From contig CAWFGE010000012.1 of assembly GCA_963815195.1 (NCBI GenBank), positions 480,001 through 544,000 on the forward strand: a DNA stretch of 64,000 nucleotides. Direction: 5' to 3'. Below, piece by piece: positions 24,001-27,000 of the stretch. Made by a program: the position numbers. Positions within the stretch are counted from its first letter, which is position 1; each line of letters begins with the position of its first letter. Origin of the DNA: an uncultured Planctomycetaceae bacterium (GTDB lineage: Bacteria > Planctomycetota > Planctomycetia > Planctomycetales > Planctomycetaceae).

Positions 24001-27000
24001 CGCTGGTTTTCAATCGGCTGCCGGTGCGGGATGAATCCGATGCGAAACCCACGCTTCAAAAAACATTCCGGCTCGATTCCCCAGACGAACTCGGCCCCGC
24101 CGGGTTGAGCGGTCCGACGTTTCTCAAACGCCCCGCCGAGCCGCAGGCCAGCCCGGTGCCGGAAACTGTGCCGGCGGATGACCAAGAAAATCGGCCCAAC
24201 CTGGGCGTGCTCGACCGCGTGCTGTTGCGAGTTCATCAATCCCGGGCGGCATAAACCGGGCGGAGACACTCGAAGAAAGGTCCGCTGATGACGATTGCTT
24301 TGGACGTGGGCAGCCGGCGGTTCCGCTCCCTGTGGCGGAAGGAGACGCACCTGGCGGCCAAAACCTGCCCCGTGGCGTGCTGCTTTCTGCCGGACAAACC
24401 TCCGGTCCGGCATTTGTTGGAACAGTCGGGCGTGCGGTTTCGTGCCGCGCAGGATCAACTCGCGATTTGGGGATCCTCGGCGGAAAAGCTCGCGAATCAA
24501 TGTGCTGTCAAAACCGAGCACCTCCTGGCCCGCAATCCGCTCCGCAAAGACAACCACACCATCCGCGAGCCTTTGCAGGATCTGCTCTCGTCCGTGCTGC
24601 CGCCGGCGAAGACTCCCGGCGAGATTTGCAGCCTCGGTTTGTTGTCCGATGATTTTCACGCCGATTGGCTTCGCGCGGCTTTGGACGAGATGGGCTATCA
24701 AATCGTGACCTGCTCCGCGGGGCTCGCCTTGGTGTTGGCGGAGATGGTCCGCGAGGAGTTCACCGGCCTCGGTTTGGTGTTCGGAGCGAGCCGCTGCGAA
24801 GCGGTGCTCGCGCGGGAAGGAAAAGAGATCGCCCGCTGCGAACTGCCGCGCGGCGGCGACGCCATCGACCAGGCCATCGCCATCGCCGAGGACCGCTACT
24901 GGTGGAGCATGGCCGGCTTCCGCGAATTGGACACCGAAGGCATCACCGAATGGAAAGAATCGCTGACGGCGTCGCTGTTACAACCCGCGAATCTCCGCGG
25001 CGAACGGCTTCTGGCGGGCTATCATCAATTGGCGGCCGAGTTGTGCGGCCTCTGCGAAAGCGCGCTCTCGCGGCACGAGTTTCCGGAGGCGCTCGCCGTC
25101 ATCGCCGGCGGCGGAGCGGTTCGCATTCCGGGGTTCGCGGAACTCCTCGCGGAGCACCTCCGCGAATCCTCGCTGCCCATCGCCCTCGACAAAACCCGCA
25201 TCGCCCCCGCGGAATCCACCATCTCCCGCGGCCTGCTGATCCACGCCGAGCTCCAACACCGCGCCCAAACGCAAGCGGCGTGAGCGGCTGGGCGCTTGCC
25301 GCCGTTCTTTGGTTCGGTCAGGCGGGGGTTTTTTCGCTGACGGGTTCTTCGCGACTGGCGTAGAAACAGACCTCGGCGTCGCCGCCGGAGCGGTCGCATT
25401 CGTTGGCGAACTGGATCAAGTGATGCGCCACGACGCCGATGTGGATCACTTCTTCGATCCGGCCGCGCAAAAGCAGGGGCAGCGCGGTTCTCCAGAACAC
25501 CTCGCGGTAGTCTCCCTTCATGCCGATCCTCCAGAACAGCCGGCCGGCAATCCGCAGGCCGCGGACAATGTTGCTGAGATTGATCCGCGCCCGGGTTGCC
25601 GGCAGCGGCTTGCGGTTGGGAAACGTGTTCTCCAGCTGATGGGCAAACCTCCCGTAAACGGCCGCCGGCACGTAGGCGCGGCGGATGCATTCCCGCCAAC
25701 TGCCGATGATCGTCTCGTAGGGCAGCAGAAAGTCCACGTTCGATTGACGGTCCGCCGCGTCCACCAGCCGCCCCGCAGCGTTCAGCCGATCCCACAGCGG
25801 CGTCTTGGGCAGCGCGTGCAGGATGTTGATCGTCAACAGCGGAATCCGCGAGGCCTCGATAAATTGCAGAATCCGGCGGCCGGTTTCGGGTGAGTCGGTA
25901 TCCAACCCGATGATGATCCCGGAGACGACTTCCAGCCCGTAGCTGTTGAGCGTGCGAACCGCCTCCAGGAGCGGCTGCCGGAGGTTCTGCTTCTTCTGCA
26001 TCGCCTTGAGGGCGTCTTCTTCTGGCGTTTCGATGCCGCAGAACACCGTCGTGAACGCGGCTTCGCGCATCAACTCCATAATCTCCGGCGACTGGGCGAG
26101 GTTCAGGGTGGCTTCGCAGGCGAACCGGACGGGAAAGCCTCGCGCCTCCTGCCAGGCGACGAGGGCCTCGAGCAGTTTCCGAGCGGCGTGCTTGTTGCCG
26201 ATGAAGTTGTCATCGACGAAATACACGCTGCCCGGGTTGCCGCGGGCGAGCATGGCATCGAGTTCAGCCGTCACCTGCTCCGGCCGCTTGAGCCGGGGGT
26301 TTCGGCCGTAAAGCGCGGGGATGTCGCAGAACTCGCACTGATAGGGGCAGCCGCTGGAAAATTGCACGCTGGCGAGGAAATAATCTCGCAGGTCGATCAG
26401 GTCATACCGCGGGGCGGGAAACTGCGAGAGAGGCAGCCGATCGGTTGTCTCGAAGAGTTCCTGCGTGTACGGCCGATCGGCGGAGTGTTCGAGGCGGGCG
26501 ATCAAGTCTCGCGTGGCGTCGCCGAGTTCACCCACGTGCAAGAGGTCCACGTCGGGATACCACTCCTGACACGCCGAGACCGACGGCCCGCCGAGAACGG
26601 TGATCTTATCGAAGCGATGCGCCCGGCGGTTGATGTCCTCGATCTGCCTTCGCTGGACGTGCATACCGCTGGTGAAGACCGCATCGGCCCAGCGGAAGTC
26701 GGCGTCGGTGGCGGGGGCGATGTTTTCATCGATGAACCGCACGTCCCATGACGTCCGGCAGCGCGGCCGCGATGAGGAGCAGCCCCTGCGGAGGCATAAA
26801 CGCCCGCACCCCGAGCAGCGGAAAGGCGTAATCGAACGTGCCGAAGGAATGCGTGTAGCGCGGAAACACGCACAGGATTCGCCGATGCCGCGAAGCCGTG
26901 CCGTTTCGGTCGGCCGTCCGTGCCGGCGGCGTTAAAACCTGATCCGTCATGATATCTCCGAGTGCTGGTGCGTGGCGGTGCCGTGATTGCCGTCAAGCAG

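Follow-up and report, generated by a model that had tools for sequence, protein, structure and literature searches.

What does a second actin do in a bacterium that already has MreB? The question is raised by a gene in a 64,000-nucleotide stretch of the genome of an uncultured Planctomycetaceae bacterium (positions 480,001 to 544,000 of contig CAWFGE010000012.1; this whole stretch is called the window), which a previous survey of the genome had described as an uncharacterized actin of the Volactin family. The question has a wider interest, as the planctomycete division machinery is unknown and MreB is dispensable in Planctopirus, with an insertion index of 0.120 in the available source data of PMC10632474.

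The actin-fold protein and its distribution

The gene in question is the following:

24288..25283, + strand: Volactin-family actin-fold protein of 331 aa, member of a probable pseudo-ATPase clade of the Planctomycetaceae (PF25216 at 151 bits; orthologue Plim_3752)

It is an intact open reading frame with an ATG start and a purine-rich spacer ahead of it, and there is one copy in this genome. A Pfam Volactin match over residues 1-320 had been reported, and it was found again, with PF25216 at 151 bits against a cut-off of 35; the same family is matched by all 52 aligned members of the actin clade. A normal MreB is encoded on another contig (C15), and so the protein is additional to MreB, as claimed. 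It is 24% identical to a haloarchaeal volactin (E 6e-17), only volactin clusters were found for it in the ESM Atlas, and its Planctopirus orthologue is already auto-named 'volactin' in RefSeq. The features of the family that it has are the actin fold and the phosphate-1, adenosine and connect-2 motifs, with D6 in 141 of 147 clade members and G275 and G315 in all 147. No NCBIfam family matched the protein, nor did PF06723 (MreB/Mbl), and the phosphate-2 Asp of MreB is absent; searches with the PilM and FtsA families (PF14450 and relatives) gave weak FtsA matches in six of 52 members, the best at E 1.8e-4.

An AlphaFold2 model built from the 52-sequence alignment (pLDDT 91.8, pTM 0.90) has the actin fold. 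The likeness to MreB, MamK and BeeR described by the survey was recovered, since these three occupy the top Foldseek ranks with TMq values of 0.57-0.69; they are the closest solved structures, at 12-17% identity to the protein. With VIA-align, BeeR (Z 22.9, rmsd 3.5, 299 residues aligned) is tied with crenactin (Z 22.3) and MreB (Z 21.8, 274 aligned), and FtsA (Z 20.1, 246 aligned) and PilM (Z 19.3, 236 aligned) follow. The statement that the protein has no sequence relative in the PDB does not stand, because a profile reaches BeeR at E 2e-6 and MamK at E 1e-4.

The protein had been called fixed in the Planctomycetaceae. It is common in the family, where 100 of 120 other genomes pass the PF25216 cut-off (101 at E<=0.001), but it is not fixed, since 20 of the 120, including the closed genome G110, have no match over the cut-off. 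A profile of the 147 clade sequences gave weak partial matches in these 20 genomes (best E 1e-4) and none in G110. Outside the family, the claim that the rest of the class has no match agrees with our class sample, in which the cut-off was passed in 46 of 47 family genomes and in none of 153 genomes from 18 other families. Canonical volactins are common in the rest of the phylum, where 96 of 284 genomes from outside the family are over the cut-off. Planctopirus, which provides the experimental data used below, belongs to the family (locus L077).

In quick trees, a branch with SH-aLRT values of 100 and 99 sets the clade apart. The clade has a long stem under midpoint rooting, and its terminal branches are several times longer than those of canonical volactins. 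Once a second volactin subfamily was added, the clade was nested with volactins of archaea and planctomycetes in a group with a support of 99, again with a midpoint root and no outside outgroup. By Pfam, distribution, fold and trees, the protein is thus a family-specific, volactin-family second actin, as the survey had it.

Residues lost and kept in the clade

To describe the motifs, the 147 clade members were compared with 103 canonical volactins, namely 72 named volactins (71 archaeal and one clostridial) and 31 from other planctomycetes. The segments concerned, all inside the actin gene, are as follows:

24291..24320, + strand: phosphate-1 motif; D6 and G8 kept (D 141/147, G 140/147), canonical T9 and N11 lost
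24711..24743, + strand: connect-1 segment, with Ala144 at the canonical catalytic Glu (HMM alignment with the MamK 'SEPF' Glu)
24759..24794, + strand: phosphate-2 segment, with Val164 here, Ser in canonical volactins and Asp in MreB and MamK (alignments)
25098..25136, + strand: adenosine GG motif, kept (G275 147/147, G276 131/147)
25275..25280, + strand: C-terminal Ala-Ala, a candidate ClpXP degron (103/147 clade members end AA)

The losses are extensive. All 103 canonical volactins have the connect-1 Glu (consensus xEG), against one of 147 clade members, and the phosphate-1 Asn (N11) is likewise in all 103 and in about 1% of the clade, so that the phosphate-1 motif reads DVGSRR here and DxGTxN in the canonical proteins. 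At phosphate-2, the canonical SxGxG is VFGAS here, and within the clade Ser164 is found in 44 and Gly168 in 32 of the 147. Canonical volactins have 76 columns with a conservation of at least 90%, and only 25 of these still reach 70% in the clade; the surface columns conserved in canonical volactins are not kept, and the mean identity within the clade is 32%, as opposed to 61-66% in canonical volactins. About seven of 47 complete held-out actins lack much of the region assigned to subdomain IIB. On the other side, the adenosine motif and the connect-2 Gly (G315, 147/147) are kept and 40 columns are newly conserved, including a basic N-terminal patch; the mean charge of the first 30 residues is +3.1 in the clade and -0.1 in canonical volactins.

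The survey had worried about a different residue, taking the loss of the phosphate-2 Asp as a sign that ATPase activity or polymerization may be absent. We reject this sign, because the loss is family-wide: Ser occupies the position in 103 of 103 canonical volactins, and the Asp is also absent from the haloarchaeal members that stand in here for VolA (HVO_2015) of Haloferax volcanii, a protein of the same PF25216 family and fold. Mad28, from deep-branching magnetotactic bacteria, has the same Ser and polymerizes in vitro with ATP-gamma-S according to the available part of PMC10653835, so the loss of the Asp is uninformative alone. In MamK and MreB neither catalytic acidic residue has been lost. 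The MamK mutant E143A, which lacks the Glu aligned to the connect-1 site, forms static filaments (PMC5059902, from the portion available). Polymerization in MamK thus survives the loss of this Glu, an observation that counts against reading Glu loss as filament loss.

Two readings of the gene can be weighed at this point. The first is that the protein is an ordinary volactin, a dynamic ATP-hydrolyzing filament that shapes the cell, as the survey's finding implied. This would agree with the PF25216 match over the whole length, the identity to haloarchaeal volactin and the nesting of the clade among volactins. However, the catalytic Glu (kept in 1/147) and most conserved residues (25/76 columns kept) are lost, and the actin is non-essential in the transposon data described below, whereas volA could not be fully deleted in the accounts given in the accessible part of PMC10869688. 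We consider the ordinary-volactin reading very improbable and, from the aligned residues, the clade actin probably does not form dynamic filaments of the volactin kind.

The second is that the gene is a relic in decay that no longer has a function, which the long branches, the repeated losses described below and a broken actin copy in one genome (G054) might suggest. This is the least probable of the readings that we considered. The actin is under purifying selection, with a dN/dS of 0.138 for the pair formed with the orthologue from the same genus and of 0.06-0.12 for six further pairs, so that seven of seven pairs lie at 0.06-0.14 (MreB, for comparison, has 0.03-0.04); in addition, the 40 clade-specific columns are conserved and the gene is kept in 100 of 120 genomes.

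The C-terminal end also sets the clade apart. The AA ending of 103 of 147 members compares with 66 of 3428 coding-like open reading frames of this genome and with none of 72 archaeal and clostridial volactins. A C-terminal di-alanine is a ClpXP signal, and the actin is probably turned over through it, as judged from the sequence; no tmRNA tag to compare with this end was found in this genome.

The SLBB partner and its tail

The gene ahead of the actin encodes a protein with the following parts:

22832..24254, + strand: partner, single-pass membrane protein, orthologue Plim_3753 (same family upstream in 21/21 loci)
22832..22909, + strand: Sec-type signal peptide ending A-L-A (by eye; orthologue N-termini are similar)
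22985..23512, + strand: head with an SLBB beta-grasp and a second compact domain, Wza/ComEA-like, predicted to be periplasmic (PF10531 at 33 bits; model pLDDT 91.8)
23793..23846, + strand: single transmembrane helix followed by basic residues, with the C-terminus presumably inside (K/R counts)
23988..24125, + strand: tail motif A, L..LI...LP..EE...P...G...R.D..H...GPHF, putative actin-docking segment (23.9 bits, shortened in this genome)
24201..24236, + strand: tail motif B (G.L[DE]R[AV]L), an amphipathic helix at the C-terminus that persists where the actin is lost

An SLBB gene had been counted ahead of the actin in five of 11 cases. The association is tighter than that, as the same family is upstream in 21 of 21 long loci, where no other neighbor family recurs in more than five. 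Partner and actin form a two-gene operon with the actin second (21/21 loci), the partner is upstream in all 49 held-out actin loci, and in 37 of these 49 it overlaps the actin start in an ATGA; here there is a gap of 33 nt. In this assembly the partner is split into two open reading frames by one extra base at 23604. Because a short-read contig over 23481-24267 (with two other differences in 786 nt) lacks the base, as does the same-genus partner orthologue, which is one open reading frame, the extra base is most likely an assembly error. One sequence (P0077) has an 856-aa partner-actin fusion frame, which we rejected as evidence for fusion, since it is a single case and one frameshift near the overlap suffices to produce it. 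No promoter was found by a promoter scan, and the nine terminator-like sites, against 4.2 +/- 2.4 in shuffles, are uninformative.

The head of the partner finds Wza by profile (E 5e-7), and Foldseek and VIA-align give Wza, WzaB, GfcC and ComEA as the best matches (Z 5.4-7.7, mostly over the first domain). With respect to Wza and the OPX proteins the partner has SLBB only and no Poly_export domain, EpsE scores 18.9 bits against a cut-off of 262.65, and no polysaccharide genes are conserved neighbors at the 21 long loci; pilus or division genes are not linked at the loci either. Matches that span both head domains are restricted to Planctomycetaceae in the class sample, and the ESM Atlas has generic SLBB clusters and one unnamed Planctomycetota cluster. 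After the head come a linker rich in Pro, Ala and Ser, with 96-307 residues in 20 proteins, and the transmembrane helix, which in 36 of 51 partners has more K/R residues after it than before it (fewer in two, tied in 13). The C-terminal tail is disordered.

Motif A, of about 50 residues, is the part of this tail whose presence goes with that of the actin, and the partner is its best match among the open reading frames of this genome. Among the 20 actin-less family genomes, the partner is still matched strongly in 14, and six show neither gene (G002, G094, G010, G099, G023 and G086; six of the 120); two of the 14 partners were dropped, as the contig ends inside the gene, which leaves 12. Motif A scores at least 15 bits in 48 of 49 actin-linked partners, which were held out of the motif A profile although some are close kin of its training rows, and in none of the 12 actin-less partners. 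The only miss among the 49 (G076) is sister to three actin-less partners, and one of the two dropped partners (G074) has motif A in a genome where no actin was found and where the contig ends inside the gene. In a tree of partner heads with 11 actin-less rows (L217 being too short), the loss of actin takes seven changes, of which the starred branches force two. A single genus provides a contrast, with G051 having actin and motif A and G120 having neither.

Because of this distribution motif A probably docks the actin, and the first 20 residues of the motif have a mean charge of -3.1, complementary to the +3.1 of the actin N-terminus. Across 49 loci, two of them with truncated actins, the profile scores of actin and motif A correlate weakly and not significantly (rho 0.24, p 0.10). 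The joint loss could also come from a shared pathway and not from direct contact, and kin are not independent cases. Repeated joint loss of an actin and one tail motif would map a likely binding site without a structure, and by this comparison of sequences the SLBB gene appears to be an obligate partner whose putative docking motif disappears when the actin does, a relationship that the survey had missed.

Motif B behaves differently. It is found in 37 of 49 actin-linked and in nine of 12 actin-less partners, on a background of 114 in 5617 open reading frames, and its mean hydrophobic moment is 0.62.

The transposon (TraDIS) source data for Planctopirus limnophila, as far as they are available in PMC10632474, bear on both genes, Plim_3753 being the partner and Plim_3752 the actin. 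The insertion indices are 0.0141 for Plim_3753, 0.111 for Plim_3752, 0.120 for MreB and 0.127 for the flanking Plim_3754 (PMC10632474). We recalculated the log2 ratios from the authors' fitted curves and obtained +7.1 for Plim_3753 and -28 for Plim_3752, where values above 3.6 are essential. This suggests that the partner belongs to the essential class and that the actin is dispensable, by our own recalculation and not by the authors' call; Plim_3753 is absent from the Fig. S3 and Fig. S2 source sheets of PMC10632474. The transposon-depleted gene is therefore the partner and not the actin, which the survey had also missed. The low index of Plim_3753 cannot come from a polar effect on the actin, since the actin itself tolerates insertions.

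Depletion in the partner and tolerance in the actin would also be expected if the partner had no role of its own and sequestered an actin that is harmful when unanchored, and the partner upstream at all 49 held-out actin loci would fit with this. We regard such sequestration as quite improbable, because the partner is intact in 12 genomes that have no actin, where it retains the periplasmic head and in most cases motif B.

A proposed adaptor at the envelope and its relation to known systems

We modestly favor the proposal that the clade actin is a volactin-derived, ATP-binding pseudo-ATPase adaptor. Its docking site would be motif A of an anchor spanning the periplasm, and its effect would be to modulate this anchor or to cluster it. 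The actin would probably still bind ATP and hydrolyze it poorly or not at all, and in the cytoplasm it would be attached to the tail of the co-translated partner, either as a monomer or as a short, static oligomer. The partner, in turn, would be a type I membrane protein with its Wza/ComEA-like beta-grasp head in the periplasm, as its predicted topology indicates, and its linker would be long enough for a wide periplasm. Acidic motif A in the cytoplasmic tail would bind the actin directly, and the C-terminal amphipathic helix may bind the membrane or a third protein. As the partner outlives the actin in 12 genomes, it presumably has an actin-independent, growth-critical role in the envelope, for which the actin is probably a dispensable modulator or clustering module turned over by way of its putative Ala-Ala degron.

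A bolder version is doubtful, though worth stating. The SLBB anchor may be an essential, lineage-specific core of an FtsZ-independent growth or budding machinery, or a membrane-to-wall tether. It would cross the periplasm and bring in a catalytically dead volactin in the way that FtsN engages FtsA, and timed proteolysis of the actin by way of its Ala-Ala end would set the place and time of clustering.

The actin might instead form long, static, ATP-bound filaments like those of MamK E143A, anchored at the membrane by motif A as a passive scaffold for shape or positioning. The full actin fold, with BeeR and MreB aligned over 299 and 274 residues against 246 and 236 for FtsA and PilM, is in its favor, as are the static filaments of the MamK mutant (PMC5059902, part available) and, in the portions at hand, reports that it is the tips of volactin filaments that bind the membrane (PMC10869688) and that the neighbor of volactin is a membrane protein (PMC12126565). 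Nevertheless, the conserved surface columns of canonical volactins are lost, the subdomain IIB region is largely deleted in about seven of 47 complete held-out members, and translational coupling suggests partner and actin amounts near 1:1. Such a scaffold is therefore unlikely.

The new elements are a clade that appears catalytically disarmed, a non-homologous SLBB anchor, a motif lost with the actin, and a reversed essentiality. If the adaptor proposal is true, a filament-forming actin family has given rise to a pseudo-ATPase adaptor that works with a new partner. The pair also comes down to two named genes in a genetically tractable strain: Plim_3753, for a trans-envelope protein that is apparently essential, specific to the family and perhaps equipped with a docking site dedicated to a second actin, and Plim_3752, for that actin. 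Searches of main texts gave no match for Plim_3752, Plim_3753, D5SWH1 or Spb1_04120, the supplements of PMC12283558 had none, and no title or abstract among the volactin, planctomycete-actin and planctomycete-SLBB papers that the searches returned concerns the pair. The available parts of PMC12748827 and of bioRxiv 10.1101/817700 and 10.64898/2026.10.26.761892 do not treat it.

The combination of a volactin with an upstream partner is a family-wide design, because an upstream open reading frame with a transmembrane segment is present in 42 of 72 archaeal and clostridial loci and the upstream genes of other planctomycete volactins end in a conserved helix. At the archaeal and clostridial loci the upstream protein was DUF7139 in two of two cases tested, and the haloarchaeal one ends in an amphipathic helix like motif B. 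Among the other planctomycete volactins, a link in the form of an SLBB partner or motif A was found in none of 20 loci, and a tubulin/CetZ motif was found near none of 72 archaeal volactins.

VolA itself forms dynamic filaments and is apparently essential in the accessible text of PMC10869688, and its neighbor (HVO_2016) is a CdpA-like membrane protein in that of PMC12126565. The clade differs from the VolA family, for which haloarchaeal members stood in for VolA, in lacking the connect-1 Glu, the phosphate-1 Asn and most conserved columns. Its partner is a non-homologous single-pass SLBB protein and not a CdpA-like (DUF7139) multi-pass protein, and the actin, which has an Ala-Ala end, is non-essential.

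Actin-fold proteins that act on single-pass membrane proteins are a guide to the proposed docking. In both PilM-PilN and FtsA-FtsN, a single-pass protein has a domain in the periplasm and a cytoplasmic peptide to which the actin-fold protein binds. The type IV pilus pair and the divisome pair serve here as a working analogy for the actin and its partner and not as a sign of family membership, although PilM-PilN structures are among the fold matches of the actin (Z 19.3 and 17.1). The clade belongs to a different actin family than PilM and FtsA, with a model that aligns longer to BeeR and MreB, and the partner, unlike PilN and FtsN, would have the reversed topology with the C-terminus inside and has no linked pilus or division genes.

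Two bacterial actins were compared by description, from the parts of the sources available. Mad28 shares the phosphate-2 Ser and, unlike the clade, keeps the connect-1 Glu and polymerizes with ATP-gamma-S (PMC10653835); no magnetosome genes are near the actin gene described here. Mad28 positions structures at the membrane (PMC12748827), and saltatorellin is described as MamK-like (bioRxiv 10.1101/817700).

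Variation in the actin and its partner within the family

The membrane anchor is not universal in the family, because both the actin gene and its upstream SLBB partner gene appear to be missing in two genera, for which the genomes G002, G094, G010 and G099 (84-98% complete) were searched. The partners upstream of the actin gene at loci L221 (4459-5394) and L223 (1925-2944) are about 310-340 aa long and have the transmembrane helix and motif A, the cytoplasmic segment predicted to dock the actin; no SLBB head was detected in either of them, and they are truncated or split forms.

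The actin itself is only 302-325 aa long at seven loci of the clade (L249, L251, L256, L259, L060, L260 and L219), and these proteins lack much of the stretch between roughly residues 195 and 235, which comprises a hairpin and a helix. At all seven of these loci, motif A scores 41 bits or less; the median is about 49.

Volactins elsewhere in Planctomycetota

The genes upstream of the canonical planctomycete volactins, i.e., those outside the clade (loci L156-L183), share a conserved C-terminal two-part motif, L..LF...E[ST]N...V.VK..KA.GV...L.KL, which may be a docking tail for these volactins. Other Planctomycetota have open frames of 770-1160 aa that enclose volactin domains (L290, 1200-4202; L291, 2041-5517; L292, 272-2815; and L294, 1669-3978), which suggests multidomain fusions. 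Tandem volactin genes are present at L174, L175 and L177, and one protein, P0157, has two volactin domains in a single chain.

Neighboring genes and other features of the window

In P. limnophila, the convergent neighbor of the actin gene, Plim_3751, encodes a 451-aa hypothetical protein; it has an insertion index of 0.005 and is among the listed essential genes. Its linkage to the actin gene is absent in other genera.

A small gene pair lies immediately upstream of the partner gene in the window:

22029-22613, +, type II toxin-antitoxin-like pair (87 aa and 98 aa)

The only family match behind this resemblance is a weak one to BrnT (E 0.11), and the pair is not kept at related loci.

Like the actin, three proteins encoded near it end in Ala-Ala:

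17827-19707, -, SNF2 helicase
19962-20519, -, 185-aa hypothetical protein
23301-24254, +, partner (downstream ORF)

Ala-Ala is the most frequent C-terminal dipeptide of the source genome (66/3428 coding-like ORFs).

One more gene reads in two frames:

16242-17714 and 16732-17502, +, DEAD-box helicase, with the DEAD domain on one ORF and Helicase_C on the other

This split is probably a further single-base assembly error, as in the partner gene.
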